Shown here in pieces: positions 1 to 64,000 of a stretch of DNA of 64,000 bases. Numbering within the stretch: the first letter of the stretch is position 1; every line of letters starts with the position of its first letter. This stretch comes from Eledone cirrhosa (taxonomy: Eukaryota), in the NCBI GenBank assembly GCA_964016885.1, contig OZ024740.1:14384001-14448000 (forward strand). Direction: 5' to 3'. The notes below the pieces were generated by a model, which was not told where the DNA came from, made no database searches, and was given only the letters and a program-made list of their open reading frames with translations. Position numbers and translations under genes: made by a program.

Positions 1-210
1 CCTGTAGTTGCTAGCTATATTAGCTCCGCATACAGGTCTTGTTGGTGGTCCTATTGTCGGGTCGTCGACTGTCTTGTGGTCTTTGCGGAGCCCATACAAG
101 GGTGGTATGCCATTGTTAGACGCCTGGAAGTTGTTGGCAGTGCGTCTGCTTGGCTTTAGGATGTCAGTCCACATCATCATGTGAGCGTTGAGGATTTTTT
201 CCTCTCCCAT
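1..210 (-). CDS. PLE-A ORF2, N-terminal part (truncated by the window edge)
   Basis: Matches 4148-4357. Confidence 0.8.
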   Translation of the reverse strand, partial: MGEEKILNAHMMMWTDILKPSRRTANNFQASNNGIPPLYGLRKDHKTVDDPTIGPPTRPVCGANIASNYR

Positions 211-1822
211 CGTGTGTTAGTTGTGCAACTTCGCTCGTGTTGGTGATGTGGGGTTGCATTGCCTCGATGTAGTTCGGCATGCTATCTATTGACATCCTAC
301 CAGACTTATCTGTGGGTAGACATACTACCTCACCATCCCTTGTGCGCTGCTTGAGGCTAACCAAGCCTTCTACAGGTTTTATCCCAAGTTGTTGGGCCTC
401 TGGTCTGCTCTGTCTCATAGTGTACCTGTCTACTACTTGTCTAATCTTATTTCTAGCTATGGTGAACTGTGCCTCCGTCTCGTCATCTATTTGTTGTGGT
501 ATGCAAACTCTTTTATTAAAGGGTAACCTCGTAGGATAGATATTACCCATCTTATATGTTTTGTCAGCTGGGTTGAAAAATAGTTTCTCTAAGGGGTTGT
601 CGTTATTTCTATCGTCATAGTTGTGTGTGTTGCTATTATTGTTATCATGGTGGTTGTTGTTGTTTCTATCCTTAGCATTAATATTATTATTGTTATGATT
701 GCTAGATGTATTGTTGTTTACTTCACCGTTATTGTTGTTGTTGTTACTGCTATTTCTACCATTGTGGTTGTTACTATTATTATGTTTCTTGTTTTTGTTG
801 ATGTTGCTACATGTACTATTTCCATTATTACCACTGTGGTTATTGTTGTTGTTGTTGTTCGTATTGTTACCGTTATTACTACTGTGGTCACTGTTGCTGT
901 GTCTGTGGTTAACGTTTCTATTATTATTATTATTGTGGTTGTTGTTGTTCTGTCTATCGCTAGTATTATTACCATTATCACTATTTCTCACTTTCCTGCC
1001 ATTGTTATGGTTATGGCTGTTATTTCTATACCCAGAGTTATTGTTTATATTACTACTACCGTTATTATTGTTGTTGTTGTTTACCTTTGCATTCCAACGT
1101 ATTTTTGTGAAACACTTTTCCAGCTCCGTTTTGCATTCCATAGGATTAATCTTTTTGTAGATGGCAAATTTTGGTGGTAACTTTAGGATTTGTTGTTCTT
1201 GTTCACTGATTAAAGTGTTCCCATAGATATTTACTGTGTGGTCATTGGTAAATTCTTCCGGTAGTTTTACATCACTCATACGGATGTTGTCGATGTTATC
1301 TGGGTATTTTTGAGAATATTCGATTTTCCTTTCTTGTAGTTTTTTCTTATTCATCCATTCTAATTTCTTCTTGAAATGCCTACAGCATTCGTTTTGAGCA
1401 TATTTCGTTTCGCGTCGGATGACGCTCATGAAGTCATCTCTCTCGTTTGCTGTGATGAGATTTCGGATTTCCTTACCGTTGATGCGTTTTTGTCTGTAGA
1501 GTGCGTTGACTTTTGTGTATGTTGTTCTTTTCATATTAACTGTTATTGTGTGTTTTAGCCGTTCAGCTTGTGTTTTGTTCAATAATAAATTATTTACTTG
1601 TTTTGATATGTTTGTTGTGTATGTTTTGGAGGAAACACAGTGTTTTAAGAAGCGGATTTGTTCTGTTGTTATTGTAGTTTTTATATAACAGAAAACAGTG
1701 TCTTTCAATAACCTTTCAGCTTGGCACAAGCTAATGCCATAGCGGCGATGAATTAGTTTTGCGAGGTTTTTTATATGAAATCGTGTGTCGAAACAGATAT
1801 TGTTATATTTGGGGAGGGTCAT
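164..1822 (-). CDS. PLE-A ORF1: PLE N-terminal region with Asn-rich insert and DKG-like motif (TDKSG), copy 1
   Basis: 552 aa. LPPKF...KIRW and GLVSLKQR..GEVVCLPTDKSG resemble the pre-RT region of PLE proteins. Confidence 0.85.
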   Translation of the reverse strand: MTLPKYNNICFDTRFHIKNLAKLIHRRYGISLCQAERLLKDTVFCYIKTTITTEQIRFLKHCVSSKTYTTNISKQVNNLLLNKTQAERLKHTITVNMKRTTYTKVNALYRQKRINGKEIRNLITANERDDFMSVIRRETKYAQNECCRHFKKKLEWMNKKKLQERKIEYSQKYPDNIDNIRMSDVKLPEEFTNDHTVNIYGNTLISEQEQQILKLPPKFAIYKKINPMECKTELEKCFTKIRWNAKVNNNNNNNGSSNINNNSGYRNNSHNHNNGRKVRNSDNGNNTSDRQNNNNHNNNNNRNVNHRHSNSDHSSNNGNNTNNNNNNNHSGNNGNSTCSNINKNKKHNNSNNHNGRNSSNNNNNNGEVNNNTSSNHNNNNINAKDRNNNNHHDNNNSNTHNYDDRNNDNPLEKLFFNPADKTYKMGNIYPTRLPFNKRVCIPQQIDDETEAQFTIARNKIRQVVDRYTMRQSRPEAQQLGIKPVEGLVSLKQRTRDGEVVCLPTDKSGRMSIDSMPNYIEAMQPHITNTSEVAQLTHDGRGKNPQRSHDDVD

Positions 1823-2335
1823 ATTTGCGTAATATTGCCAGAATTAATAACAGAACACACTCACTGTTTGGTTGGTTTTCGCTTCTCGCTGTCTTTTATA
1901 TATATATATCTGCGATCTAACTTACTCGGTCCTCAATGTTGCCATTGACTGGCCGGCGGTCAAAAATAATACAGATACAATATAGACAAACACATATATA
2001 TATAGTTTACATAAATCTTTCGTTGCACATCTGCAACATCGTCAGTGGTGTTATATTCATTGTTCCTCCTGTTGTGTTGTATGTCTACGCCATTTTTTTT
2101 TTTTTTTTTTTTTTTTTTGTTCAGTCTGTCTATATATTTATTTATTTATTTGCTTGTTTGTTTATCTTATTTTATTTTGTCTTCTTTGCGCATGCGTTTG
2201 CGTGTGTGTATAGTGTTATGTGTGATGTGTGACTAGTGTGTATAGTGTTGTGTCTGCTGGGTGACTAGTGTGTGTTTATGTGCTTGTGTATGTATTTATT
2301 TATCTTATTTTATTTAATTTAATTTACTTATTTAT

Positions 2336-4357
2336 TTATACTTCTCTTAGGTCAGTGTTGTTTGTTTGGGTGTTGTTGTTGTTCCACTCATTCTTTCTGT
2401 TTAGCTTTGGTCTTCTAATTTCTATTTCACTGGCCTCTCTGATTTGCCTATCTGCTGGGTCATTCCTATGTTTAGATATTATTCTAATTTCTATGTTGTC
2501 TATGTTACCGTCATGATGTTGTCTAGCATGTTCGTATAGTACTGACCCGTTTTTTCGTCCTTTTAGTTCCCCCCAGTGTTGGTCTATCCTTTCACCTATG
2601 CTACGAGCTGTCTCACCTATGTATGTTGTTGTCGTGTTTCTGCAAGTACCCTCTGTACATCTTATGCTATAGACTACGTTTCTAGTTTTACAGTTTATCC
2701 GGGGGTTCACCTTACATATGATACATTTCCTATTGGTACAGTGGGTTTTCTTAAAAGGGTAGGTTTTGCTGATCAGGGATTTTATGGTGGTTCCTGGCTT
2801 TTCTACTACCTTTATTTTTAAGTGGGTCTTTCTCAGGGCCTTTCTACACTGGTTAGCTAATTTCCCTCCAGGGGTGGCGTCCACAAACATGACACTCTGA
2901 TATCTCTGGTTGTCGTACCATGATGTGGCCTTCCCTATCTTATGTCTAGCCCTATCTAAGCTATTCCATGATTTGCTCCTGTATAGTGGGCAAATTCCTT
3001 TCATGTCCAGTTCTATGAGGGTCTTATACTTTTCCATGGCTCCTTCGTATACTCTGACTCTGTCTCTTTGGTTGTAGCCAGAGAACTGCATGCGGTTGAT
3101 GAAGTGTTGGATGTGTCCTTCCATTTCTGTTGGGTCGCACATGCTGGACACATTCTTCATCACTCGTACCAAATCTGCGATCAGAATATTAAACTTAGCA
3201 CTACTGGACATTGCTGAGTTTTTGAGTATCAGGTATTTGGAGGCCATGGGTTTAGCATAGTGTGAGTGGAGAATTTGGGCTCTCTCGTCTATAGTGTTAA
3301 TCCAGAGTTCTGTGTCTAATACAGGTAGTCTATTGTTAGGGTGTTTGGAAGGGAAGTCTATAGTTACAGTTATACTCTGGTGTATGGAATTAGCTATCTG
3401 CTGGATGCTTTCCATCGTGCTACGTTCTAAATCAAACTTGTTAGTGCTCTCTAGTGGGGGTGTTCTTATAACTATATTGATATCGTCTACATAACGAGAG
3501 TACATGATGAGGTCTATGGAGCTTTCATTAAGGAGATCTTTAAGTCTCCTTTCCCACCATACCATGAAAAGGTTGGCAACATCGCCAGCTATGCTGACGC
3601 CGATGGCTGCTCCCTCATTTTGGGTGTAGATTTTCTCATTGAACTTAAATATGTGGCCCTTTAGGGTAGTTTTGATACTAGCCCCTATTGCATGTGCGAC
3701 CATTTTTCTTACCTGATCAGTGTTTTGGGGGGTCCGTATAGCTTTGGTCCACCCAATCCACCTTCCTATGGGAGTCTTTTTAGCCATTGAGGTTATGGTG
3801 GGGGGTCTACCTCTTATAGGTCTACTAGGGCAGAAACATCTAAGGTCATGGCTGTCTAGGTAGTCAGTGTCGTAGGTAAGTCTAAGTAGGAGGCCCAGTT
3901 CGTCTGTGTCGACGTCGCAGAACTCCACCTCACTCTCAATGATCATCTCCACACATCTTTTCACAGCAAAATCAATGTTAATGGATGGGTACAGTGACAC
4001 CACATCCATGCTGCCTATTATGCAGTTGGATAGGCTCCTGTTTTTGTTGCACTCACTGATTCTGCTGAGGAGGTCCTCTGTACTTTCACATACATCTGGG
4101 GACATCTTGATTATGGGGCGTATAACCATTGAGAGGAAGTAGGAGATCCTGTAGTTGCTAGCTATATTAGCTCCGCATACAGGTCTTGTTGGTGGTCCTA
4201 TTGTCGGGTCGTCGACTGTCTTGTGGTCTTTGCGGAGCCCATACAAGGGTGGTATGCCATTGTTAGACGCCTGGAAGTTGTTGGCAGTGCGTCTGCTTGG
4301 CTTTAGGATGTCAGTCCACATCATCATGTGAGCGTTGAGGATTTTTTCCTCTCCCAT
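2336..4357 (-). CDS. PLE-A ORF2: reverse transcriptase, Cys-rich linker and GIY-YIG endonuclease, copy 1
   Basis: 673 aa. PPLYGLRKDHK, RPV, DVVSLYPSI, YSRYVDD, LPVLD, CTNRKCIIC, VVY-YIG, R...H, E...I..RPKLN. Confidence 0.92.
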   Translation of the reverse strand: MGEEKILNAHMMMWTDILKPSRRTANNFQASNNGIPPLYGLRKDHKTVDDPTIGPPTRPVCGANIASNYRISYFLSMVIRPIIKMSPDVCESTEDLLSRISECNKNRSLSNCIIGSMDVVSLYPSINIDFAVKRCVEMIIESEVEFCDVDTDELGLLLRLTYDTDYLDSHDLRCFCPSRPIRGRPPTITSMAKKTPIGRWIGWTKAIRTPQNTDQVRKMVAHAIGASIKTTLKGHIFKFNEKIYTQNEGAAIGVSIAGDVANLFMVWWERRLKDLLNESSIDLIMYSRYVDDINIVIRTPPLESTNKFDLERSTMESIQQIANSIHQSITVTIDFPSKHPNNRLPVLDTELWINTIDERAQILHSHYAKPMASKYLILKNSAMSSSAKFNILIADLVRVMKNVSSMCDPTEMEGHIQHFINRMQFSGYNQRDRVRVYEGAMEKYKTLIELDMKGICPLYRSKSWNSLDRARHKIGKATSWYDNQRYQSVMFVDATPGGKLANQCRKALRKTHLKIKVVEKPGTTIKSLISKTYPFKKTHCTNRKCIICKVNPRINCKTRNVVYSIRCTEGTCRNTTTTYIGETARSIGERIDQHWGELKGRKNGSVLYEHARQHHDGNIDNIEIRIISKHRNDPADRQIREASEIEIRRPKLNRKNEWNNNNTQTNNTDLREV

Positions 4358-5969
4358 CGTGTGTTAGTTGTGCAACTTCGCTCGTGTTGGTGATGTGGGG
4401 TTGCATTGCCTCGATGTAGTTCGGCATGCTATCTATTGACATCCTACCAGACTTATCTGTGGGTAGACATACTACCTCACCATCCCTTGTGCGCTGCTTG
4501 AGGCTAACCAAGCCTTCTACAGGTTTTATCCCAAGTTGTTGGGCCTCTGGTCTGCTCTGTCTCATAGTGTACCTGTCTACTACTTGTCTAATCTTATTTC
4601 TAGCTATGGTGAACTGTGCCTCCGTCTCGTCATCTATTTGTTGTGGTATGCAAACTCTTTTATTAAAGGGTAACCTCGTAGGATAGATATTACCCATCTT
4701 ATATGTTTTGTCAGCTGGGTTGAAAAATAGTTTCTCTAAGGGGTTGTCGTTATTTCTATCGTCATAGTTGTGTGTGTTGCTATTATTGTTATCATGGTGG
4801 TTGTTGTTGTTTCTATCCTTAGCATTAATATTATTATTGTTATGATTGCTAGATGTATTGTTGTTTACTTCACCGTTATTGTTGTTGTTGTTACTGCTAT
4901 TTCTACCATTGTGGTTGTTACTATTATTATGTTTCTTGTTTTTGTTGATGTTGCTACATGTACTATTTCCATTATTACCACTGTGGTTATTGTTGTTGTT
5001 GTTGTTCGTATTGTTACCGTTATTACTACTGTGGTCACTGTTGCTGTGTCTGTGGTTAACGTTTCTATTATTATTATTATTGTGGTTGTTGTTGTTCTGT
5101 CTATCGCTAGTATTATTACCATTATCACTATTTCTCACTTTCCTGCCATTGTTATGGTTATGGCTGTTATTTCTATACCCAGAGTTATTGTTTATATTAC
5201 TACTACCGTTATTATTGTTGTTGTTGTTTACCTTTGCATTCCAACGTATTTTTGTGAAACACTTTTCCAGCTCCGTTTTGCATTCCATAGGATTAATCTT
5301 TTTGTAGATGGCAAATTTTGGTGGTAACTTTAGGATTTGTTGTTCTTGTTCACTGATTAAAGTGTTCCCATAGATATTTACTGTGTGGTCATTGGTAAAT
5401 TCTTCCGGTAGTTTTACATCACTCATACGGATGTTGTCGATGTTATCTGGGTATTTTTGAGAATATTCGATTTTCCTTTCTTGTAGTTTTTTCTTATTCA
5501 TCCATTCTAATTTCTTCTTGAAATGCCTACAGCATTCGTTTTGAGCATATTTCGTTTCGCGTCGGATGACGCTCATGAAGTCATCTCTCTCGTTTGCTGT
5601 GATGAGATTTCGGATTTCCTTACCGTTGATGCGTTTTTGTCTGTAGAGTGCGTTGACTTTTGTGTATGTTGTTCTTTTCATATTAACTGTTATTGTGTGT
5701 TTTAGCCGTTCAGCTTGTGTTTTGTTCAATAATAAATTATTTACTTGTTTTGATATGTTTGTTGTGTATGTTTTGGAGGAAACACAGTGTTTTAAGAAGC
5801 GGATTTGTTCTGTTGTTATTGTAGTTTTTATATAACAGAAAACAGTGTCTTTCAATAACCTTTCAGCTTGGCACAAGCTAATGCCATAGCGGCGATGAAT
5901 TAGTTTTGCGAGGTTTTTTATATGAAATCGTGTGTCGAAACAGATATTGTTATATTTGGGGAGGGTCAT
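4311..5969 (-). CDS. PLE-A ORF1, copy 2
   Basis: Protein identical to 164-1822. Confidence 0.85.
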   Translation of the reverse strand: MTLPKYNNICFDTRFHIKNLAKLIHRRYGISLCQAERLLKDTVFCYIKTTITTEQIRFLKHCVSSKTYTTNISKQVNNLLLNKTQAERLKHTITVNMKRTTYTKVNALYRQKRINGKEIRNLITANERDDFMSVIRRETKYAQNECCRHFKKKLEWMNKKKLQERKIEYSQKYPDNIDNIRMSDVKLPEEFTNDHTVNIYGNTLISEQEQQILKLPPKFAIYKKINPMECKTELEKCFTKIRWNAKVNNNNNNNGSSNINNNSGYRNNSHNHNNGRKVRNSDNGNNTSDRQNNNNHNNNNNRNVNHRHSNSDHSSNNGNNTNNNNNNNHSGNNGNSTCSNINKNKKHNNSNNHNGRNSSNNNNNNGEVNNNTSSNHNNNNINAKDRNNNNHHDNNNSNTHNYDDRNNDNPLEKLFFNPADKTYKMGNIYPTRLPFNKRVCIPQQIDDETEAQFTIARNKIRQVVDRYTMRQSRPEAQQLGIKPVEGLVSLKQRTRDGEVVCLPTDKSGRMSIDSMPNYIEAMQPHITNTSEVAQLTHDGRGKNPQRSHDDVD

Positions 5970-6482
5970 ATTTGCGTAATATTGCCAGAATTAATAACAG
6001 AACACACTCACTGTTTGGTTGGTTTTCGCTTCTCGCTGTCTTTTATATATATATATCTGCGATCTAACTTACTCGGTCCTCAATGTTGCCATTGACTGGC
6101 CGGCGGTCAAAAATAATACAGATACAATATAGACAAACACATATATATATAGTTTACATAAATCTTTCGTTGCACATCTGCAACATCGTCAGTGGTGTTA
6201 TATTCATTGTTCCTCCTGTTGTGTTGTATGTCTACGCCATTTTTTTTTTTTTTTTTTTTTTTTTTGTTCAGTCTGTCTATATATTTATTTATTTATTTGC
6301 TTGTTTGTTTATCTTATTTTATTTTGTCTTCTTTGCGCATGCGTTTGCGTGTGTGTATAGTGTTATGTGTGATGTGTGACTAGTGTGTATAGTGTTGTGT
6401 CTGCTGGGTGACTAGTGTGTGTTTATGTGCTTGTGTATGTATTTATTTATCTTATTTTATTTAATTTAATTTACTTATTTAT

Positions 6483-8504
6483 TTATACTTCTCTTAGGTC
6501 AGTGTTGTTTGTTTGGGTGTTGTTGTTGTTCCACTCATTCTTTCTGTTTAGCTTTGGTCTTCTAATTTCTATTTCACTGGCCTCTCTGATTTGCCTATCT
6601 GCTGGGTCATTCCTATGTTTAGATATTATTCTAATTTCTATGTTGTCTATGTTACCGTCATGATGTTGTCTAGCATGTTCGTATAGTACTGACCCGTTTT
6701 TTCGTCCTTTTAGTTCCCCCCAGTGTTGGTCTATCCTTTCACCTATGCTACGAGCTGTCTCACCTATGTATGTTGTTGTCGTGTTTCTGCAAGTACCCTT
6801 TGTACATCTTATGCTATAGACTACGTTTCTAGTTTTACAGTTTATCCGGGGGTTCACCTTACATATGATACATTTCCTATTGGTACAGTGGGTTTTCTTA
6901 AAAGGGTAGGTTTTGCTGATCAGGGATTTTATGGTGGTTCCTGGCTTTTCTACTACCTTTATTTTTAAGTGGGTCTTTCTCAGGGCCTTTCTACACTGGT
7001 TAGCTAATTTCCCTCCAGGGGTGGCGTCCACAAACATGACACTCTGATATCTCTGGTTGTCGTACCATGATGTGGCCTTCCCTATCTTATGTCTAGCCCT
7101 ATCTAAGCTATTCCATGATTTGCTCCTGTATAGTGGGCAAATTCCTTTCATGTCCAGTTCTATGAGGGTCTTATACTTTTCCATGGCTCCTTCGTATACT
7201 CTGACTCTGTCTCTTTGGTTGTAGCCAGAGAACTGCATGCGGTTGATGAAGTGTTGGATGTGTCCTTCCATTTCTGTTGGGTCGCATATGCTGGACACAT
7301 TCTTCATCACTCGTACCAAATCTGCGATCAGAATATTAAACTTAGCACTACTGGACATTGCTGAGTTTTTGAGTATCAGGTATTTGGAGGCCATGGGTTT
7401 AGCATAGTGTGAGTGGAGAATTTGGGCTCTCTCGTCTATAGTGTTAATCCAGAGTTCTGTGTCTAATACAGGTAGTCTATTGTTAGGGTGTTTGGAAGGG
7501 AAGTCTATAGTTACAGTTATACTCTGGTGTATGGAATTAGCTATCTGCTGGATGCTTTCCATCGTGCTACGTTCTAAATCAAACTTGTTAGTGCTCTCTA
7601 GTGGGGGTGTTCTTATAACTATATTGATATCGTCTACATAACGAGAGTACATGATGAGGTCTATGGAGCTTTCATTAAGGAGATCTTTAAGTCTCCTTTC
7701 CCACCATACCATGAAAAGGTTGGCAACATCGCCAGCTATGCTGACGCCGATGGCTGCTCCCTCATTTTGGGTGTAGATTTTCTCATTGAACTTAAATATG
7801 TGGCCCTTTAGGGTAGTTTTGATACTAGCCCCTATTGCATGTGCGACCATTTTTCTTACCTGATCAGTGTTTTGGGGGGTCCGTATAGCTTTGGTCCACC
7901 CAATCCACCTTCCTATGGGAGTCTTTTTAGCCATTGAGGTTATGGTGGGGGGTCTACCTCTTATAGGTCTACTAGGGCAGAAACATCTAAGGTCATGGCT
8001 GTCTAGGTAGTCAGTGTCGTAGGTAAGTCTAAGTAGGAGGCCCAGTTCGTCTGTGTCGACGTCGCAGAACTCCACCTCACTCTCAATGATCATCTCCACA
8101 CATCTTTTCACAGCAAAATCAATGTTAATGGATGGGTACAGTGACACCACATCCATGCTGCCTATTATGCAGTTGGATAGGCTCCTGTTTTTGTTGCACT
8201 CACTGATTCTGCTGAGGAGGTCCTCTGTACTTTCACATACATCTGGGGACATCTTGATTATGGGGCGTATAACCATTGAGAGGAAGTAGGAGATCCTGTA
8301 GTTGCTAGCTATATTAGCTCCGCATACAGGTCTTGTTGGTGGTCCTATTGTCGGGTCGTCGACTGTCTTGTGGTCTTTGCGGAGCCCATACAAGGGTGGT
8401 ATGCCATTGTTAGACGCCTGGAAGTTGTTGGCAGTGCGTCTGCTTGGCTTTAGGATGTCAGTCCACATCATCATGTGAGCGTTGAGGATTTTTTCCTCTC
8501 CCAT
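6483..8504 (-). CDS. PLE-A ORF2 (RT plus GIY-YIG), copy 2
   Basis: Same as 2336-4357 except two substitutions (positions 6800 and 7287). Confidence 0.92.
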   Translation of the reverse strand: MGEEKILNAHMMMWTDILKPSRRTANNFQASNNGIPPLYGLRKDHKTVDDPTIGPPTRPVCGANIASNYRISYFLSMVIRPIIKMSPDVCESTEDLLSRISECNKNRSLSNCIIGSMDVVSLYPSINIDFAVKRCVEMIIESEVEFCDVDTDELGLLLRLTYDTDYLDSHDLRCFCPSRPIRGRPPTITSMAKKTPIGRWIGWTKAIRTPQNTDQVRKMVAHAIGASIKTTLKGHIFKFNEKIYTQNEGAAIGVSIAGDVANLFMVWWERRLKDLLNESSIDLIMYSRYVDDINIVIRTPPLESTNKFDLERSTMESIQQIANSIHQSITVTIDFPSKHPNNRLPVLDTELWINTIDERAQILHSHYAKPMASKYLILKNSAMSSSAKFNILIADLVRVMKNVSSICDPTEMEGHIQHFINRMQFSGYNQRDRVRVYEGAMEKYKTLIELDMKGICPLYRSKSWNSLDRARHKIGKATSWYDNQRYQSVMFVDATPGGKLANQCRKALRKTHLKIKVVEKPGTTIKSLISKTYPFKKTHCTNRKCIICKVNPRINCKTRNVVYSIRCTKGTCRNTTTTYIGETARSIGERIDQHWGELKGRKNGSVLYEHARQHHDGNIDNIEIRIISKHRNDPADRQIREASEIEIRRPKLNRKNEWNNNNTQTNNTDLREV

Positions 8505-10116
8505 CGTGTGTTAGTTGTGCAACTTCGCTCGTGTTGGTGATGTGGGGTTGCATTGCCTCGATGTAGTTCGGCATGCTATCTATTGACATCCTACCAGACT
8601 TATCTGTGGGTAGACATACTACCTCACCATCCCTTGTGCGCTGCTTGAGGCTAACCAAGCCTTCTACAGGTTTTATCCCAAGTTGTTGGGCCTCTGGTCT
8701 GCTCTGTCTCATAGTGTACCTGTCTACTACTTGTCTAATCTTATTTCTAGCTATGGTGAACTGTGCCTCCGTCTCGTCATCTATTTGTTGTGGTATGCAA
8801 ACTCTTTTATTAAAGGGTAACCTCGTAGGATAGATATTACCCATCTTATATGTTTTGTCAGCTGGGTTGAAAAATAGTTTCTCTAAGGGGTTGTCGTTAT
8901 TTCTATCGTCATAGTTGTGTGTGTTGCTATTATTGTTATCATGGTGGTTGTTGTTGTTTCTATCCTTAGCATTAATATTATTATTGTTATGATTGCTAGA
9001 TGTATTGTTGTTTACTTCACCGTTATTGTTGTTGTTGTTACTGCTATTTCTACCATTGTGGTTGTTACTATTATTATGTTTCTTGTTTTTGTTGATGTTG
9101 CTACATGTACTATTTCCATTATTACCACTGTGGTTATTGTTGTTGTTGTTGTTCGTATTGTTACCGTTATTACTACTGTGGTCACTGTTGCTGTGTCTGT
9201 GGTTAACGTTTCTATTATTATTATTATTGTGGTTGTTGTTGTTCTGTCTATCGCTAGTATTATTACCATTATCACTATTTCTCACTTTCCTGCCATTGTT
9301 ATGGTTATGGCTGTTATTTCTATACCCAGAGTTATTGTTTATATTACTACTACCGTTATTATTGTTGTTGTTGTTTACCTTTGCATTCCAACGTATTTTT
9401 GTGAAACACTTTTCCAGCTCCGTTTTGCATTCCATAGGATTAATCTTTTTGTAGATGGCAAATTTTGGTGGTAACTTTAGGATTTGTTGTTCTTGTTCAC
9501 TGATTAAAGTGTTCCCATAGATATTTACTGTGTGGTCATTGGTAAATTCTTCCGGTAGTTTTACATCACTCATACGGATGTTGTCGATGTTATCTGGGTA
9601 TTTTTGAGAATATTCGATTTTCCTTTCTTGTAGTTTTTTCTTATTCATCCATTCTAATTTCTTCTTGAAATGCCTACAGCATTCGTTTTGAGCATATTTC
9701 GTTTCGCGTCGGATGACGCTCATGAAGTCATCTCTCTCGTTTGCTGTGATGAGATTTCGGATTTCCTTACCGTTGATGCGTTTTTGTCTGTAGAGTGCGT
9801 TGACTTTTGTGTATGTTGTTCTTTTCATATTAACTGTTATTGTGTGTTTTAGCCGTTCAGCTTGTGTTTTGTTCAATAATAAATTATTTACTTGTTTTGA
9901 TATGTTTGTTGTGTATGTTTTGGAGGAAACACAGTGTTTTAAGAAGCGGATTTGTTCTGTTGTTATTGTAGTTTTTATATAACAGAAAACAGTGTCTTTC
10001 AATAACCTTTCAGCTTGGCACAAGCTAATGCCATAGCGGCGATGAATTAGTTTTGCGAGGTTTTTTATATGAAATCGTGTGTCGAAACAGATATTGTTAT
10101 ATTTGGGGAGGGTCAT
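8458..10116 (-). CDS. PLE-A ORF1, copy 3
   Basis: Protein identical to 164-1822. Confidence 0.85.
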   Translation of the reverse strand: MTLPKYNNICFDTRFHIKNLAKLIHRRYGISLCQAERLLKDTVFCYIKTTITTEQIRFLKHCVSSKTYTTNISKQVNNLLLNKTQAERLKHTITVNMKRTTYTKVNALYRQKRINGKEIRNLITANERDDFMSVIRRETKYAQNECCRHFKKKLEWMNKKKLQERKIEYSQKYPDNIDNIRMSDVKLPEEFTNDHTVNIYGNTLISEQEQQILKLPPKFAIYKKINPMECKTELEKCFTKIRWNAKVNNNNNNNGSSNINNNSGYRNNSHNHNNGRKVRNSDNGNNTSDRQNNNNHNNNNNRNVNHRHSNSDHSSNNGNNTNNNNNNNHSGNNGNSTCSNINKNKKHNNSNNHNGRNSSNNNNNNGEVNNNTSSNHNNNNINAKDRNNNNHHDNNNSNTHNYDDRNNDNPLEKLFFNPADKTYKMGNIYPTRLPFNKRVCIPQQIDDETEAQFTIARNKIRQVVDRYTMRQSRPEAQQLGIKPVEGLVSLKQRTRDGEVVCLPTDKSGRMSIDSMPNYIEAMQPHITNTSEVAQLTHDGRGKNPQRSHDDVD

Positions 10117-10712
10117 ATTTGCGTAATATTGCCAGAATTAATAACAGAACACACTCACTGTTTGGTTGGTTTTCGCTTCTCGCTGTCTTTTATATATATA
10201 TATCTGCGATCTAACTTACTCGGTCCTCAATGTTGCCATTGACTGGCCGGCGGTCAAAAATAATACAGATACAATATAGACAAACACATATATATATAGT
10301 TTACATAAATCTTTCGTTGCACATCTGCAACATCGTCAGTGGTGTTATATTCATTGTTCCTCCTGTTGTGTTGTATGTCTACGCCATTTTTTTTTTTTTT
10401 TTGTTCAGTCTGTCTATATATTTATTTATTTATTTGCTTGTTTGTTTATCTTATTTTATTTTGTCTTCTTTGCGCATGCGTTTGCGTGTGTGTATAGTGT
10501 TATGTGTGATGTGTGACTAGTGTGTATAGTGTTGTGTCTGCTGGGTGACTAGTGTGTGTTTATGTGCTTGTGTATGTATTTATTTATCTTAGAGGAGCAA
10601 ATCATGTATTTATTTATCTTAGAGGAGCAAATCATGGAATAGCTTAGATAGGGCTAGACATAAGATAGGGAAGGCCACATCATGGTACGACAACCAGAGA
10701 TATCAGAGTGTC

Positions 10713-11267
10713 ATGTTTGTGGACGCCACCCCTGGAGGGAAATTAGCTAACCAGTGTAGAAAGGCCCTGAGAAAGACCCACTTAAAAATAAAGGTAGTAG
10801 AAAAGCCAGGAACCACCATAAAATCCCTGATCAGCAAAACCTACCCTTTTAAGAAAACCCACTGTACCAATAGGAAATGTATCATATGTAAGGTGAACCC
10901 CCGGATAAACTGTAAAACTAGAAACGTAGTCTATAGCATAAGATGTACAGAGGGTACTTGCAGAAACACGACAACAACATACATAGGTGAGACAGCTCGT
11001 AGCATAGGTGAAAGGATAGACCAACACTGGGGGGAACTAAAAGGACGAAAAAACGGGTCAGTACTATACGAACATGCTAGACAACATCATGACGGTAACA
11101 TAGACAACATAGAAATTAGAATAATATCTAAACATAGGAATGACCCAGCAGATAGGCAAATCAGAGAGGCCAGTGAAATAGAAATTAGAAGACCAAAGCT
11201 AAACAGAAAGAATGAGTGGAACAACAACAACACCCAAACAAACAACACTGACCTAAGAGAAGTATAA
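10713..11267 (+). pseudogene. 5'-truncated PLE-A GIY-YIG fragment
   Basis: 184 aa identical to the ORF2 C-terminus. Confidence 0.9.
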
Positions 11268-11550
11268 ATAAATAAGTAAATTAAATTAAATAAAATAAGA
11301 TAAATAAATACATACACAAGCACATAAACACACACTAGTCACCCAGCAGACACAACACTATACACACTAGTCACACATCACACATAACACTATACACACA
11401 CGCAAACGCATGCGCAAAGAAGACAAAATAAAATAAGATAAACAAACAAGCAAATAAATAAATAAATATATAGACAGACTGAACAAAAAAAAAAAAAAAA
11501 AAAAAAAAAATGGCGTAGACATACAACACAACAGGAGGAACAATGAATAT

Positions 11551-11595
11551 AACACCACTGACGATGTTGCAGATGTGCAACGAAAGATTTATGTA
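11551..11595 (+). ncRNA. Hammerhead-like motif in the PLE-A pLTR (imperfect); minus-strand copies at ~2008-2052, ~6155-6199, ~10302-10346
   Basis: CTGACGA-t-GTTGCA-gatg-TGCAAC-GAAA-gatt-TA. Core and stem II are good; stem I is weak. Confidence 0.45.
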
Positions 11596-11861
11596 AACTA
11601 TATATATATGTGTTTGTCTATATTGTATCTGTATTATTTTTGACCGCCGGCCAGTCAATGGCAACATTGAGGACCGAGTAAGTTAGATCGCAGATATATA
11701 TATATAAAAGACAGCGAGAAGCGAAAACCAACCAAACAGTGAGTGTGTTCTGTTATTAATTCTGGCAATATTACGCAAATATGACCCTCCCCAAATATAA
11801 CAATATCTGTTTCGACACACGATTTCATATAAAAAACCTCGCAAAACTAATTCATCGCCGC

Positions 11862-12390
<529 letters not shown>

Positions 12391-12502: not shown

Positions 12503-13002
12503 TATACATATATACATACAGGTACACATACATATATGCACGCATCAGTTTAGCGGACGTTTATTACAACGCCGCTTTGTTCGTTTGTTTGTCAACAAAC
12601 CGAACAGCCTGAATTTATGCCATACGGTGTTAAGGCAACCACGTCACCTTTTTGTTCAACACTGACACAGGAACGATGTACTAGTTTCAAGCTTGTTAGC
12701 TATCATCAGCACCGTTTACCCATCTGCCAGATAGTTGAACGTTCGAAAGTATATACTTTCGAACGTTCAACTATCTGGCAGATGGGTAAACGGTGCTGAT
12801 GATAGCTAACAAGCTTGAAACTAGTACATCGTTCCTGTGTCAGTGTTGAACAAAAAGGTGACGTGGTTGCCTTAACACCGTATGGCATAAATTCAGGCTG
12901 TTCGGTTTGTTGACAAACAAACGAACAAAGCGGCGTTGTAATAAACGTCCGCTAAACTGATGCGTGCATATATGTATGTGTACCTGTATGTATATATGTA
13001 TA

Positions 13003-19860: not shown

Positions 19861-19883
19861 ATATATATATATATATATATATA

Positions 19884-20483
19884 TAAATTGAAACAAAATG
19901 AAAACGAAATTTCATTTCTCACTCTTAGTATGGCACTTACTTAAATGTAAGTATGCATGTATACGTACATACATATATGTATACAGACGTACAGTAGCAT
20001 GCACATATATATATATATATATATATACATATATATATACATATGCATACAGGTACACATACATATATGCACGTATCAGTTTAGCGGCGCTTATTATAAC
20101 GTCGCTTTGTTCGTTTGTAAACAAACTGAACAGCCTGAATTTATGCCATACGGTGTTAAGGCAACCACGTCACCTTTTTTGTTCAACACTGACACAGGAA
20201 CGATGTACTAGTTTCAAGCTTGTTAGCTATCATCAGCACCGTTTACCCATCTGCCAGATAGTTGAACGTTCGAAAGTATATACTTTCCTTATGAAAATTA
20301 ACGGCTGAGCAGCCTAATTTGCATATTGAGTGAGTTAAATCGGTCAGGCATACCGAAAACGATAAATTGAAACAAAATGAAAACGAAATTTCATTTCTCA
20401 CTCTTAGTATGGCACTTACTTAAATGTAAGTATGCATGTATACGTACATACATATATGTATACAGACGTACAGTAGCATGCAC

Positions 20484-20516
<33 letters not shown>

Positions 20517-21357
20517 TATATACATATGCATACAGGTACACATACATATATGCACGTATCAGTTTAGCGGCGCTTATTATAACGTCGCTTTGTTCGTTTG
20601 TAAACAAACTGAACAGCCTGAATTTATGCCATACGGTGTTAAGGCAACCACGTCACCTTTTTGTTCAACACTGACACAGGAACGATGTACTAGTTTCAAG
20701 CTTGTTAGCTATCATCAGCACCGTTTACCCATCTGCCAGATAGTTGAACGTTCGAAAGTATATACTTTCCTTATGAAAATTAACGGCTGAGCAGCCTAAT
20801 TTGCATATTGAGTGAGTTAAATCGGTCAGGCATACCGAAAACGATAAATTGAAACAAAATGAAAACGAAATTTCATTTCTCACTCTTAGTATGGCACTTA
20901 CTTAAATGTAAGTATGCATGTATACGTACATACATATATGTATACAGACGTACAGTAGCATGCACATATATATATATATATATATATACATATATATATA
21001 CATATGCATACAGGTACACATACATATATGCACGTATCAGTTTAGCGGCGCTTATTATAACGTCGCTTTGTTCGTTTGTGAACAAACTGAACAGCCTGAA
21101 TTTATGCCATACGGTGTTAAGGCAACCACGTCACCTTTTTGTTCAACACTGACACAGGAACGATGTACTAGTTTCAAGCTTGTTAGCTATCATCAGCACC
21201 GTTTACCCATCTGCCAGATAGTTGAACGTTCGAAAGTATATACTTTCCTTATGATAATTAACGGCTGAGCAGCCTAATTTGCATATTGAGTGAGTTAAAT
21301 CGGTCAGGCATACCGAAAACGATAAATTGAAACAAAATGAAAACGAAATTTCATTTC
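19884..21357 (-). mobile_element. Family B tandem array: three ~480-bp units plus a short partial unit, one hammerhead per unit
   Basis: Equivalent positions at 19898, 20377, 20859 and 21337. Hammerheads on the minus strand at 20201-20241, 20683-20723, 21161-21201. Confidence 0.92.
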
Positions 21358-24219: not shown

Positions 24220-25505
24220 TTAAACCAACCATCTCATTTCGGTTCTCTCGGATCGGTTGTTTAATTGTTGCCCTAGGCGTTTGATCCAAAGTGCTTCCTT
24301 GATACGTAACGTGCCAACGTTTCTTTCTGTCGCTAGAATTGTGACAATGGGCCTTCCGTCTTTGTTTCCGCATTTGGCTATGTGTTTCCGGAAAGACGAG
24401 GCCCTGGTTTTAGCGTGTTCCTTGATCCGGATGTGCAACAGCCGGATTGTGCTACCTATATAGTATTGGTTGCACTTGTTACATTCTATCTTATACACGA
24501 CGTATGTGCGTAGGCAACAGTTCGCATTGCGCATCGGGCAGTCTCTGAGGGAGCACGCGTCAGTTGATTTCCCGGGTTTCCTGGAGAGGCATCTTCGCAG
24601 GGAGGGGCCCGAGTGGGTGAGGTGGATATCGAGGCCCTTCCTCCGTATAGCCTTGCGGATAGCGTTGGTGGTATTCTCACCCAGGTATGGCATTTTAAGG
24701 AAGCACTTGCCTTGGGTGCCTCTCTGTCTCTTGTGTCTGGTGTCTCCTACTCTGTCTGTGAGCGAGGTAGGGTACCCGTTCGTCTCCAGCACCTCGAGGA
24801 ATCGCTTGGTATGAGTGACACCACTCGCGGGATCGGTGCATCTGTTTTTGATTCGCGCGATCTCGTTCGTGATGTATCCTCTTTTGGCACTGTTAGGGAG
24901 GGCGGACTTGTAGTGGACGAACAGGTCCCTGCAGGCTGCCTTTCGGTGATGTTGATTCGGAAGTCGAGGAGGGCAAGTAACCTGTCTTCGTTGGGGTGTT
25001 CAACACTGAAGTCAATGTTCTCGTCCGTGTTGTTGAACGTCTCATAGATTCTGTTCGCCGTGTCTTGGGAAGATGTGAGGATGAGGATATCGTCCACGTA
25101 CCTTGAGAAAAAGGCGACGGCGTTGGGGTGGCAGGCGTTGAGTGCCATGTAAGAGATCGCTAGCACACCCGACAGGCTTGATCCCATGGGCAGTCCCGAG
25201 GTTTGTTGGTATGTTTGGTTAAGGAATCCGAAGTAGGTGTTGTCGACGACGATGGATAGGAGTTGGTGGATGTCAGTGGTGGTGAGCCCGAAGCAGTGTA
25301 GGTCGGTGGATTGGACGCGTTCCATCAGTATATTGACGGCCGGGAGTGCCGGGACCGAGGTGTAGAGAGCGACTACATCAAGGCTGAAGGCATATCTGTT
25401 ATTCTTTCTGGTGTCGGGATCCATTTGATGCAGGCGCTTCAACACCTCCTCGGAGCTGTTAACGTGTCCCGGCAAGGTGTCTAAGATGGGTTTGAGTATT
25501 CTGGC
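24220..25505 (-). pseudogene. Degenerate 5'-truncated PLE (RT plus GIY-YIG), frameshifted; 3' UTR extends to ~23680
   Basis: SLDVVALYTSV, GLPMGSSLS, SRYVDD; VVYKIEC..C..YYIGST.R..RIKEH. Confidence 0.9.
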
Positions 25506-25735
25506 TATATACAAATATGTATTTGAAAGGGACAACCGTCGTTGTATTTCCAACTTATATGGTTCTCGTCAGGACAGTGTTTCCCGGTCTCACTACTGCC
25601 GGACTTTATAAAAAAGGCGAAAATATTTACTTTTTTCGTCTATATAAATGAGGTGATTAATCTCATTTGCATATAAGTTGGCTCAACTTAAAATATAATT
25701 AGAATTTAGCTGTAGAAATACGAAATTCAAATACT

Positions 25736-26273: not shown

Positions 26274-29200
26274 TATTGGTAAAAGGAAAAGAAAATGCTG
26301 ACAAATTGTTCCTAGTGAAAAATAGTTTAATTAGGAATAAGTAAAAATTAGTAATAAGTATTGGTTAGTATTCAGTTTTGGTTTTAAGTTTTTACCGGTT
26401 GCGCATTTCTAATGCTTTTCAAAAATAATTTTGAGATAGAGCTTCCGTGATGTTTGCTCTAATCTGATTAGTTTGGGAAATTCTACCTGTTTTTATGTTA
26501 AAAAAAGTGGCTCCAGAGGTATTAAAATAAGTTTTGCGCCAATTCGTGTTGCAAAAATTCTTGTGGTCAAAACAATTTTGATTGGTCGGTAGAGGTCATG
26601 TGAATGTTAAAAATTGATTTTGCGCCAAATGTAGGTTTGTCTCGGCTGATTGAGAAGTCACTGAAAAATAAGTCTTTCAAAACAAATATCTGTGTGTGTG
26701 TGTGTGTAGTAGTAGTAGTAGTAAAGAGGTTCATTGTTGTGATAATGGTCAGTAGGGATGTGTGTGTGAATTGCAGTTTGTTGACAGGTCAACAGTTCAG
26801 GTGTCTATTAAGACAAGTGTGTGTGTGTGTGTGTGTGTAGCAGAGTAATTCGTGGTAGACGGATGGTCAGTAGGAATGTGTCTGTACGTGTGTGGGGGAT
26901 ATTTTAGCATGTTGAAAGATATTTTTCAGCTCTTGTCTTATACGGTGAAGTGCGTGTGTGTGTGTGTGTATATATATGTCTCTTTGTATGTTAGTGTACG
27001 CGTGTGTATGTGTGTGTGTATATATGTGTGTGTGTGTATATGTGTGTATGTGTGTGTGTGGCTGGACCAGTATTTTTGTGATACTGGTAAAAATGGTGTA
27101 CATTATTCTATATTTTCAGTAAAAACGATTCTCTCAATAGAACATCAAAAACCTTAATAATAAAAGGTGTGAAATGATATATATTAGGGAGGTGATTGAG
27201 CATATCTAGGTCGTCCCTTATATAGCTTTTGATGTGTTTGAGAAAAGGCTTGAGAAGGGTATCACTGAAGTTGCTAAGGCGGTGGGTTTCGCAAGCGGGG
27301 CCTGCTATTATAGGTCTTAATTTGAGATCATTGGGTGAGGGGACATTGATGACTATGTCTGTGGCTTCCTTGCATGCCTTACTTATTAATTCGCTTTTAG
27401 GTACGTTAGGGATACCGTAGAAAAGGCTGGATTTACTTGCGAAGTCTGTGATGAAGCTGAATTCCTTGTTAGTGAGTCTTTCTTTGTATTGGTTGATCAG
27501 AGTTTTTAGGTTTCTCATAATTTTCTGTTGATTATAGTGTTCAGCCTTTTCGTAGTATGTTTCGTTTTCCAAAGTGGAGAGCGCTAAGTTGATATAGAAT
27601 TCTGTCTCCATTAGGACTACTGTACTCCCTTTATCAGCCTCTTTAATTGTAATGGTTCTGTCGGTTTTTAATCTATTTAATTCTTCCCATTCTTTCTTGT
27701 TGAGGTTTGGCTTGTGTTTTTGTCTGTGCAGTGTTGGTAAGGGAAGTTTGTGATGTGTTCACAGAATTCGTCCAGGATTTTATTTCTACCTTTTGATGGG
27801 GTGTAGTTGCTTCTATTTCTGGCTAATGATTTATCCTCATTGTACTGGTCGAATAGTTCTTCACTGAGTCGTAACTTTCTACAGAAGTCTGTGATGTCTT
27901 CCTTCATTTCATAGTAGTTAGGACGTAGTGGGGTCGGTGTGAATTTAAGACCTTTGGAGAGTAAGTTGATAAGGTTGGGTGTTGGTTCTGCACTAGTTAG
28001 ATTGATAATTTTTATTACTCTCTGTTTCTCCTCCCTGTCTTGTGTTATTTTGTTTGCCTGTATCTGTGTGCTGTGTCTAAAAAATGGTTTGGGTAGAGGG
28101 GTTGTCTGCTGATGTTAAGTGGTCTCCTGTGTTTGTTATATTCCTTGTTGTTGTAAAATGTGGTTCGGGTTCGTGGTTGTAGATTGAATGGGGTGTTCCT
28201 GTATTGCGAGTATGGATGTGTGTTTCTATGTGCCATGTTAGATTGTGGTGTTATAGGTGGCCTACGTTGTTGGTTGTATCGTGTGGTGTGGGTTTGTTGA
28301 GTATTGTGGAAGCGAGAGTTGAGAAAATGGAAATTACCTTGCTGTCCCCTTGAAGCGGGGAAGTTGTTACATCTATCATGGTGGTGGTATTTTTCCCTAT
28401 GTTTGACAATGAGGCATCCGCGTAGTAGTTGAGTGATTTGGTATGGTGTCTCCTTGAAGGGGGAAAGTTGTAAATGTCATTCTGGGGGTGATGTTTTGTA
28501 GGGTTTTTGTTCCTTCTTATGGTAGCGAGGTTGGGAGGTTTATCTTCGGTGTGGTGCTTCCTTCTTCTTTTGTTAGTGGCTGGGGGGTTTGCGAAGTTTT
28601 GCGGTTCGGTTATGGGTTTTCCTATGTTTATGAACGGGTTATTGGAGGTGTAATCCGTTTGAAAAGTCGATTCATAGTGTAGGAACCAAGCGGCACTTTT
28701 TTCCCAGCGTTGAAGGGATTTCAGTTCTTCTCTGTTGCAGTCCCCTTTCCATAATTTAGAGATCTTCTCTACCTTGGGGTCTTCAGTCTTATTGTTGATT
28801 TCCAGGAGGATCTCTTCATCGATGGTTTTGATTTTTTCCTCATTTGTCTGGGCCCTCAATTTAAGAAGTTCAATTTCTGTCTTCATTTTTTCCAATGCCA
28901 TTCTTTCCCTAAGGTGTCTTTGAGGTTCGGGTTCATTTGGAATGGACTTTATTTGTATTTTACGGGGGAGAGTTAGAGGGGTTGAGTTAAGCCATTTTTC
29001 ATATATCTCCGCTTTGTTGTGATTTTGTATCATCTTTCAGAATGAGAACTTTCTGTGTCTGAGGGATTTGTTCCATTTTGGAATTGTTCGAATTTTCATT
29101 TTGTATGAATCAATCTCACATGGTTCTTCGTTGGTTTTTCCTGGGTTGGTAGTAGTGAACATAGTTTGGATAGTATCGCAAAGGTTCTGTAGTTAATCGC

Positions 29201-32950: not shown

Positions 32951-33498
32951 ATTCTAATACCACTTAAGAGATTTGGCCTGGGCAAACATCCCCTCAATTT
33001 TGGAACCGTCTGGGTTGTCCTGAATTGATTGGAAAAGACTTTACGTTCTTACCCTGTGCCTCTAGTAAAGAGGCCTGGTGCCTTACCTGGGACGTCACAG
33101 TTAGTGACTCTTTTCCTTCTTCTCTCATCTTTGATGCAGCGGTAAGGGCGAGAGCTACAGCATCCGCAGCCGAACGGAATAAAATCCTAAAATACCGTGT
33201 TCTGTCGGTCAACTACATTTTCCAGCCTGTGGCGTTCGAGACGTTTGGGGGAATCGGGCTACTGACTGAGAGGTTCTTATCTTCCCTGCGGCAGGCCTAA
33301 CCGAAGTAACTTGTGATACTCGTCAGGGCGCTTAGTTGTTCCAGCACCTCAGCCTCACCATCACCCAAGGTAACACCTCGAGCATGCTGGATTGCCTAAA
33401 TAATTATTAGAGAGGTTTCCCACTGCTCCTCGCGATATTGTTATCTTTTGTTCTGGTAGCGGCTGGGTTGTCCACCCCTTTCGCCTGCCTTTTGTATT
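32951..33498 (+). pseudogene. Head of satellite-bearing element: remnant of a CRE-like restriction-like endonuclease
   Basis: LTWDVTVSDSF...ATASAAERNKILKY..L..NYIFQPVAFETFGGIG, followed by in-frame stops. Confidence 0.75.
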
Positions 33499-36400
33499 AT
33501 GTGGTCCTAGATGTGTGTATTACCTGCTTGTGTGTTGTATGTGGTCCTAGATGTGCGTACTACCTGCTAGGTGTGTTGTATGTGGTCCTAGATGTGTGTA
33601 CAACTTGCTTGTGTGTTGTACGTGGTCCTAGATGTGTGTATTACCTGCTTGTGTGTTGTATGTGGCCCTAGATGTATGTATTACCTGCTTGTGTGTTGTA
33701 TGTGGTCCTAGATGTGTGTATTACCTGCTTGTGTGTTGTATGTGGTCCTAGATGTGTGTATTACCTGCTTGTGTGTTGTATGTGGCCCTAGATGTGTGTA
33801 TTACCTGCTTGTGTGTTGTATGTGGTCCTAGATGTGTGTACAACTTGCTTGTGTGTTGTATGTGGTCCTAGATGTGTATATTACCTGCTTGTGTGTTGTA
33901 TGTGGCCCTAGATGTATGTATTACCTGCTTGTGTGTTGTATGTGGTCCTAGATGTGTGTATTACCTGCTTGTGTGTTGTATGTGGTCCTAGATGTGTGTA
34001 TTACCTGCTTGTGTGTTGTATGTGGTCCTAGATGTGTGTATTACCTGCTTGTGTGTTGTATGTGGCCCTAGATGTATGTATTACCTGGTTGTGTGTTGTA
34101 TGTGGCCCTAGATGTGTGTATTACCTGCTTGTGTGTTGTATGTGGCCCTAGATGTATGTATTACCTGCTTGTGTGTTGTATGTGGCCCTAGATGTATGTA
34201 TTACCTGCTTGTGTGTTGTATGTGGCCCTAGATGTATGTATTACCTGCTTGTGTGTTGTATGTGGCCCTAGATGTGTATATTACCTGCTTGTGTGTTGTA
34301 TGTGGCCCTAGATGTATGTATTACCTGCTTGTGTGTTGTATGTGGCCCTAGATGTATGTATTACCTGCTTGTGTGTTGTATGTGGTCCTAGATGTATGTA
34401 CTACCTGCTTGTGTGTTGTATGTGGCCCTAGATGTGTGTATTACCTGCGTGTGTGTTGTATGTGGCCCTAGATGTATGTATTACCTGCTTGTGTGTTGTA
34501 TGTGGCCCTAAATGTATGTATTACCTGCTTGTGTGTTGTATGTGGCCCTAGATTATGTATTACCTGCTTGTGTGTTGTATGTGGTCCTACATGTATGTAC
34601 TACCTGCGTGTGTGTTGTATGTGGCCCTAGATGTGTGTATTACCTGCGTGTGTGTTGTATGTGGCCCTAGATGTATGTATTACCTGCGTGTGTGTTGTAT
34701 GTGGCCCTAGATGTATGTATTACCTGCTTGTGTGTTGTATGTGGCCCTAGATGTATGTATTACCTGCTTGTGTGTTGTATGTGGCCCTAGATGTATGTAT
34801 TACCTGCTTGTGTGTTGTATGTGGCCCTAGATGTATGTATTACCTGCTTATGTGTTGTATGTGGCCCTAGATGTATGTATTACCTGCTTGTGTGTTGTAT
34901 GTGGCCCTAGATGTATGTACTACCTGCTTGTGTGTTGTATGTGACCCTAGATGTATGTATTACCTGCTTGTGTGTTGTATGTGGCCCTAGATGTATGTAT
35001 TACCTGCTTGTGTGTTGTATGTGGCCCTAGATGTATGTATTACCTGCTTGTGTGTTGTATGTGACCCTAGATGTATGTATTACCTGCTTGTGTGTTGTAT
35101 GTGGCCCTAGATGTGTGTATTACCTGCGTGTGTGTTGTATGTGGCCCTAGATGTATGTATTACCTGCTTGTGTGTTGTATGTGGTCCTAGATGTGTGTAT
35201 TACCTGCTTGTGTATTGTATGTGGCCCTAGATGAATGTATTACCTGCTTGTGTGTTGTATGTGGCGCTAGATGTATGTATTACCTTCTTGTGTGTTGTAT
35301 GTGGTCCTAGATGTATGTATTACCTGCTTGTCTGTTGTATGTGGTCCTAGATGTATGTATTACCTGCGTGTGTGTTGTATGTGGCCCTAGATGTATGTAT
35401 TACCTGTTTCTGTGTTGTATGTGGCCCTAGATGTATGTATTACCTGCGTGTGTGTTGTATGTGGCCCTAGATGTGTGTACTACCTGCTTGTGTGTCGTAT
35501 GTGGTCCTAGATGTATGTATCACCTGCATGTGTGTTGTATGTGGCCCTAGATGTATGTATTACCTGCTTCTGTGTTTTATGTGGCTCTAGATGTATGTAT
35601 TACGTGCGTGTGTGTTGTATGTGGCCCTAGATGTGTGTACTACCTGCTTGTGTGTTGTATGTGGTCCTAGATGTATGTATCACCTGCGTGTGTGTTGTAT
35701 GTGGCCCTAGATGTATGTATTACCTGCTTCTGTGTTGTATGTGGCCCTAGATGTATGTATTACATGCTTGTGTGTTGTATGTGGCCCTAGATGTATGTAT
35801 TACCTACGTGTGTGTTGTATGTGGTCCTAGATGTGTGTACTACCTGCTTGTGTGTTGTATGTGGTCCTAGATGTATGTATCACCTGCGTGTGTGTTGTAT
35901 GTGGCCCTAGATGTATGTATTACCTGCTTCTGTGTTGTATGTGGCCCTAGATGTATGTATTACCTGCTTGTGTGTTGTATGTGGCCCTAGATGTATGTAT
36001 TACCTGCTTGTGTGTTGTATGTGGTCCTAGATGTATGTATTACCTGCTTGTGTGTTGTATGTGGCCCTAGATGTATGTATCCCCTGCGTGTGTGTTGTAT
36101 GTGGCCCTAGATGTATGTATTACCTGCTTCTGTGTTGTATGTGGCCCTAGATGTATGTATTACCTGCTTGTGTGTTGTATGTGGCCCTAGATGTATGTAT
36201 TACCTGCTTGTGTGTTGTATGAGGTCCTAGATGTATGTATTACCTGCTTGTGTGTTGTATGTGGCCCTAGATGTATGTATCCCCTGCGTGTGTGTTGTAT
36301 GTGGCCCTAGATGTATGTATTACCTGCTTCTGTGTTGTATGTGGCCCTAGATGTATGTATTACCTGCTTGTGTGTTGTATGTGGCCCTAGATGTATGTAT

Positions 36401-41562: not shown

Positions 41563-41650
41563 CAGAACTATAAATATGAGCGGAACAAGTAAACATTAAA
41601 CAATCTTTTAAATAAATTAAAATACGATTTAAATATTCACCCGTTCTAAT

Positions 41651-43155: not shown

Positions 43156-46190
<3,035 letters not shown>

Positions 46191-60240: not shown

Positions 60241-64000
<3,760 letters not shown>

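Follow-up and report, generated by a model that had tools for sequence, protein, structure and literature searches.

The window analysed here, a stretch of 64,000 nucleotides from Eledone cirrhosa (contig OZ024740.1, positions 14,384,001 to 14,448,000), starts within a minus-strand tandem array whose unit measures 4147 bp. The array comprises three full units, a terminal pLTR and an inverted 5'-truncated piece, with (TA)n at both ends. Its features are as follows, with positions counted from the first letter of the window.

1..2335, minus strand: third (3'-most) unit, running about 2.3 kb past the left window edge to the terminal pLTR, which ends in (TA)n (locus L072).
2336..6482, minus strand: middle unit, 4147 bp.
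6483..10591, minus strand: first (5'-most) unit, differing from the middle unit by two substitutions and a shorter A tract.
10620..11864, plus strand: inverted copy truncated at the 5' end, made up of an endonuclease end, a pLTR and an ORF start, with (TA)n at its end; carries the array's allele at 2807.
5970..6482, minus strand: the unit's pLTR region, lying between ORFs and containing an A26 tract.
6165..6192, minus strand: putative core resembling a minimal hammerhead (CUGAnGA, a single additional base, a helix II of 6 bp, GAAA).
4311..5969, minus strand: 'ORF1', the 5' part of a broken single ORF (552 aa, counting from its first Met), comprising an N-terminal region, an insert rich in Asn and DKSG, then 12 out-of-frame codons and UGA.
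2336..4357, minus strand: 'ORF2', the 3' part of the broken single ORF; RT core (YVDD), thumb, C-x4-C-x2-C linker and GIY-YIG-type endonuclease (VVY...YIGET).
4348..4349, minus strand: the extra base, GG before an A6 run where 742 genomic copies have one G; it causes the frameshift (equivalents at 201-202 and 8495-8496).
4352..4357, minus strand: AUG and UGGGA; in continuous copies these letters belong to Asp-Gly-Arg codons in the other frame.
4337..4351, minus strand: 5-bp hairpin with an A5 loop (stem 4351-4347/4341-4337), formed only with the extra G; the best stem without it is 3 bp.
4311..4327, minus strand: three AUGs (4327-4319) and the ORF1 UGA (4313-4311); in continuous copies, Met-Met-Met-Trp-Thr-Asp of a conserved N-x-H-M-x-x-W helix.

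Minimal hammerhead ribozymes of Penelope-like elements (PLEs) are described in PMC4209133. The candidate core in the pLTR region was spotted by eye and its helix II folds; an Rfam scan of positions 1-6600 with E-values up to 1 returned no matches.

Counted from stop to stop, ORF1 spans 559 aa (4311-5990) and ORF2 675 aa (2336-4363), both free of stops, and they overlap by 53 nt, or by 47 nt when counted from the AUG at 4357. A first-pass annotation of this DNA had singled out the 47-nt overlap of two otherwise stop-free frames, identical at three junctions, and it is indeed to be seen in the sequence: the 56-nt junction is letter-identical in the three units (164-219, 4311-4366 and 8458-8513, minus strand). 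Also present is every motif that it listed there. The AUG at 4357 has A in position -3 and G in position +4, a Kozak context; UGGGA (4356-4352) falls 39-43 nt upstream of the UGA; the 5-bp hairpin with its A-loop follows; and the third of the three AUGs lies about 6-8 nt before the UGA. The pentamer itself occurs four times in each 4147-nt unit. The annotation offered three readings of this arrangement, namely a programmed +1 frameshift yielding a fusion of about 1210 aa, termination-reinitiation yielding two proteins, or a simple 1-nt insertion copied through the array.

By the features described for Neptune and Nematis elements in PMC8557442, which include a DKG-like motif, a reverse transcriptase (RT), a linker and a GIY-YIG endonuclease with two cysteines, the element is an endonuclease-bearing (EN+) Penelope-like retrotransposon of the Neptune/Nematis type. 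All of them are found in a natural intact copy (L084): besides DKSG there is YVDD in the RT core, the linker has the form C-x4-C-x2-C, and the GIY-YIG-type endonuclease contains two cysteines. The DKSG motif stands at residue 505, upstream of the RT core; the linker precedes the endonuclease, and the pair of Cys residues within the GIY-YIG core lies at 1077 and 1104. A C-x2-5-C-x2-C linker is found in 53 of 55 proteins with a YIG motif, the query included. The Penelope-like identity and the DKG-like motif proposed in the first-pass annotation are correct. In Pfam the ORF2 fragment has a weak match to RVT_1 (E-value 1.1e-4), below Pfam's own cut-off, and neither the ORF1 fragment nor the intact protein matches any family.

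Canonical PLEs are described as having one ORF and a tandem arrangement (PMC11167929). A single ORF with RT and, at its C-terminus, a GIY-YIG endonuclease characterizes the present family, and the window units are broken by one base. As in the EN+ PLEs of Neptune/Nematis type described in PMC8557442, we find a single ORF of 1209-1211 aa with DKS, linker and endonuclease, tandem units forming pLTRs, an inverted 5'-truncated copy and a (TA)n target; unlike them, the three window units are frameshifted. An in-frame Asn-rich insert of 162 aa (51% Asn) recalls the Penelope families of Adineta vaga as presented in PMC3846280, as does the occurrence of frameshifted beside intact copies. In contrast to the account given there, the insert here is N-terminal and precedes the RT, whereas theirs lies between RT and EN or between RT and thumb, and the copies here number in the thousands rather than a few.

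Seen against the genome at large, the split is very probably due to the insertion of one base into a single array of a Penelope-like family with one ORF. By exact junction patterns, which miss older diverged copies and leave variants one base shorter than the continuous form outside the counts, 742 of 753 copies in the whole genome are one base shorter than the window units, 5 have the extra G (+G) and 6 have an extra A (+A). Three of the five +G copies, which amount to 0.7% of the total, are those of the window; the other two lie on C4 and C10, one on each. The +A copies, six in number, are scattered; in L084 one of the two units has the extra A and its neighbour is intact. A similarity search returned 30 loci, 22 of them one base shorter, 5 with GG and 3 with A7, but because its hits are ordered by resemblance to the window, copies with an additional base are over-represented (8 of 30), and the exact counts are used instead. 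Ten complete ORFs of 1209-1211 aa, in seven arrays, each with DKSG, YVDD and YIGET in one chain, were found in a sample of 19 other 10-kb stretches hand-picked from hit lists, mostly for arrays or for copies with an additional base. The 'fusion' of about 1210 aa is therefore the normal protein of the family. The first-pass annotation had pointed to the A6 run as the place to check in raw reads; the inserted base is not in the run itself, being the G at 4348/4349 that adjoins it.

The annotation had named two observations as telling against recoding, a continuous ORF in independent copies and short reads with one base fewer, and both were made. Beyond the continuous copies just described, base 4348 is absent from the public contigs of four out of four runs. 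Raw reads from three runs under one species label, possibly not the assembled species, likewise lack it in 134 of 179, 220 of 248 and 136 of 149 cases; the remaining 45, 28 and 13 reads are not assignable to +G, many of them ending or going loose at the junction. These reads come from individuals other than the one assembled, and the G itself is without read confirmation. No RNA run was listed as containing the junction region, an outcome neutral as to expression. Other frameshifting indels are scattered across 19 of 75 copies, and the 3' part of the family is present in at least 2872 copies. The family is very young and abundant, with many intact ORFs. Judged by their reading frames, the window units themselves are likely to be non-coding for a working protein.

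The continuous state is ancestral, because both the sisters that share markers with the window and the older subfamilies are continuous. Of the copies retrieved because they carry a window marker allele, 22 span the junction and every one is continuous, 21 by alignment and one, L101, judged by its equal length. The copy L116 differs from the window at three places, the G among them (99.89% identity), and shares the allele at 4470; the older subfamilies (82-96% identity) match the continuous form in length and mostly lack the A6 run. The window's alleles at 4470 and 2807 were considered as private to it; this held in the sample of 75 copies and failed genome-wide, where 7 and 20 other copies carry them.

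Since the +G loci sit on different haplotypes, the +G arose repeatedly. Over six markers the haplotypes are 000000 in the window, 100000 on C4 and 011111 on C10; among 63 copies these classes have 20, 16 and 17 members. In an alignment of 75 copies, five linked markers are present in the C10 copy and absent from the window and from C4, and the C4 copy has a 3-nt deletion that the window lacks. Independence is read here from marker haplotypes rather than from a tree, and a single 3-nt repeat deletion separates the window from C4; accordingly we count at least two origins of +G, and probably three. On these haplotypes, the +G copies form no clade.

The agreement of the three junctions does not amount to three separate observations: the window units are mutually 99.7-100% identical and are copies of one insertion. 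Variants that all units of an array have in common, and that are missing from the rest of the 75 copies sampled, occur at 9 of 12 multi-unit loci. As the units of an array normally share variants, the three identical junctions represent one event, and the third of the annotation's own readings, one inserted nucleotide propagated along the array, is supported. The shared variants are most simply read as the copying of each array from one template; according to PMC4209133, a circular or more-than-unit RNA has been proposed as the template of PLE tandems. The extra G is likely to have arisen once for the array, by a polymerase slip at the G-A6 run in the array's template. The slipping enzyme would have been RNA polymerase II or the element's own reverse transcriptase, and repeated copying of the single template would have placed the G in all three units. 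The G may either have been present already in the source copy or have been new in its transcript. If the source copy was already broken, protein supplied in trans from intact sister copies would suffice; in the survey of PMC3846280, defective PLE copies are the majority and trans action is documented for Penelope.

It is worth asking whether the junction is unusually mutable. At two control G-A6 runs of the ORF, an additional base is found in 39 of 2911 copies (1.3%) and 20 of 459 copies (4.4%), compared with 11 of 753 (1.5%) at the junction (Fisher p 0.73 and 0.003, the control being the higher in the latter case). The junction run is not enriched for such gains. All 59 control events are +A and none is +G, while +G occurs at the junction at three loci, an excess with Fisher p 0.002 when loci are counted (3 of 9) and 0.013 when origins are counted (2 of 8). 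Plain slippage thus leaves the specificity for +G partly unexplained.

In quasi-palindrome mutation, a nascent strand briefly pairs with itself and copies a base that perfects the stem. Such a templated fold-back is a variant of the slippage explanation that concerns the origin of the G and not its function, and we regard it as possible, if on balance rather unlikely. If it were true, the hairpin would be the cause of the mutation and not a signal, since fold-back copying perfects the stem. With the G duplicated, the best stem at the junction grows from 3 bp to 5 bp; duplication has no such effect at the two control runs, the same runs at which +G is not seen; of 1950 isolated-base duplications, 74 create such a stem. 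RNA structure is also reported to influence RT indels at slippery runs in vitro (PMC5737552). However, the idea is post hoc, and stem-making substitutions in young copies reveal no general enrichment: 11 of 144 distinct substitutions make a stem of at least 5 bp, against 7.5 +/- 2.7 expected, and 8 of 60 random draws reach 11. The same letters could, moreover, result from a slipped, mispaired primer end, or from +A followed by an A-to-G change. Quasi-palindrome papers were absent from the literature matches listed.

A less probable alternative to a genuine one-base insertion is that the G is an assembly or polishing error across three near-identical units whose real copies are intact. The G adjoins a homopolymer, 1-4% of copies have an additional base at A6 runs, the L084 array has its extra A in just one of two units, and no public contig or read set examined positively shows the G. 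Yet a systematic fault would affect far more than five of 753 copies and would show at the control runs, where +G is missing from all 59 events. Furthermore, the three window units agree on the G while differing elsewhere, and other arrays share real variants in the same manner. We therefore consider such an error improbable.

Least probable of all is programmed recoding, in which the +G form would be a working two-ORF element expressed through TURBS-type reinitiation or a +1 ribosomal frameshift. The layout does loosely resemble the TURBS of calicivirus and influenza B treated in PMC3542737, in which UGGGA precedes the stop by about 40-90 nt and the restart codon adjoins the stop: here UGGGA comes some 40 nt before the stop, at the margin of that range, an AUG stands close ahead of the stop, a hairpin is present, and the +G arose at least twice. 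However, the arrangement differs from the TURBS of that account in being conserved neither in the family nor among homologues, and in cutting inside a conserved region of one protein, where TURBS couples two proteins. Neither a programmed frameshift nor termination-reinitiation is upheld: the split is not fixed in the family, occurs in 0.7% of copies that form no clade and in none of the 22 marker-sharing relatives, and its nearest sisters and the older subfamilies are continuous.

The homologues point the same way. The best named protein match is a hypothetical protein of Octopus vulgaris (72% identity over the region searched), and all 96 homologues covering both sides of the site have the same length across it, in a search admitting only proteins of 669-2130 aa, which favours unsplit forms and cannot show split relatives. 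In 110 homologues the helix N-x-H-M-x-x-W is conserved with N in 98, H in 98 and W in 81. The parts of the supposed signal are not: none of 103 homologues has Gly at the column behind UGGGA, the context being changed even so, and MMM, the source of the triple AUG, is present in 2 of 110. The DKG-like motif and the downstream RT motif lie in one chain in 92 of 110 homologues, and the break falls in the conserved helix, 36 residues after the DKG-like motif, so that reinitiation would sever this motif from the RT. The PLEs that are read in two ORFs with a frameshift and pseudoknot are of the endonuclease-lacking Athena type. Like them, the window units are a PLE read in two frames, and some PLE types do have an ORF1 separable in this way (PMC8557442); in the elements described there, though, ORF1 is separate and upstream, while the break here lies inside the RT protein, the minimum-energy fold shows no pseudoknot and an endonuclease is present. 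Endonuclease-lacking PLEs are the ones to which PMC6431247 assigns two ORFs. Our literature search found no programmed recoding in an EN+ PLE, and the recoding reading, if true, would be the first case as far as that search shows. It is tempting to imagine the +G allele as a viable two-ORF, endonuclease-bearing Penelope that makes its RT-endonuclease half by TURBS-like reinitiation, its signal caught at birth, but this is very hard to credit.

How readily such a junction arises by chance was gauged on a natural intact copy, by simulating a one-base insertion at 2733 internal positions in turn. An overlap of at least 53 nt resulted in 55% of cases, an in-frame AUG inside the overlap in 56% and a Kozak AUG in 22%; a 5-bp hairpin appeared in 12%, UGGGA preceded the stop by 20-90 nt in 12%, and an AUG fell within -20 to +10 of the stop in 29%. 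UGGGA together with a near-stop AUG was obtained in 6.3%. Taken together, the junction features are mildly uncommon and within chance for features chosen post hoc.

Our findings also carry a more general caution. Because the units of a Penelope tandem array share the mutations of their template, identity between units is uninformative on selection and should not be taken as evidence of it. The family, for its part, would serve well as natural material for measuring how often Penelope indels occur and for studying how tandem arrays form.

Exact matches to the element ORF across the genome numbered 2872 near its 3' end, 742 at mid-ORF and 439 near its 5' end, a steep gradient of 5' truncation. 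Many are more than 99.5% identical and carry intact ORFs; in this genome, the Penelope-like family is both very young and large. In one sister copy elsewhere in the genome, L092 (G000:C21:32299500-32309000), the RT region is interrupted by two insertions, one of (AT)5 and one of a single nucleotide.

Within the sampled genomic stretches L072-L091, elements terminate on their 3' side at one of two points, unit positions 539 and 597, which lie 58 bp apart within the start of the ORF. These resemble the two RT start sites and the 'tail' described in PMC11167929. Many of the insertions there take the form of head-to-head inversions that overlap by 1-6 bp. In the array of the window and beside it, we located the following:

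10574-10636: 30-bp direct duplication where the tandem units meet the inverted copy
12545-12965: long inverted repeat with (TA)n on its flanks, immediately right of the array
6240-6265, 2093-2118 and 11485-11510: A26 tract within the inter-ORF region (pLTR)

The corresponding A tract of the first unit (about 10387-10402) is shorter. The pLTR also holds, at the same position in every unit, a candidate minimal-hammerhead-like core spotted by eye (6165-6192, minus strand), for which an Rfam scan of window 1-6600 (E up to 1) returned no match. The N-terminal region of the element ORF contains an Asn-rich insert of 162 aa (51% Asn; 4760-5250, minus strand) that keeps the reading frame and whose length differs among copies by in-frame AAC variants.

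Elsewhere in the window lie further Penelope-like sequences and tandem repeats:

55336-57474, plus strand: 712-aa ORF unrelated to the array's element, with DKTG, RYRDD and YIG motifs by eye
24220-25568 and 27108-29036, both minus strand: broken RT / GIY-YIG-like fragments
33498-41563 (~200 copies), 43699-44773 (~27 copies) and 60682-64000 (83+ copies): 40-bp satellite
19883-21357: 478-bp tandem repeat

The 712-aa ORF found no match in Pfam and probably represents a second Penelope-like family. The broken fragments are likely to be decayed Penelope-like elements. Approximately 150 residues of P0085, a protein from the homologue search annotated as an Octopus vulgaris leucine-rich-repeat/F-box protein isoform, share 74% identity with the element; an exonised or mis-annotated insertion would be the likely source. 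The 40-bp satellite shows 94-95% matches and is present in both orientations.
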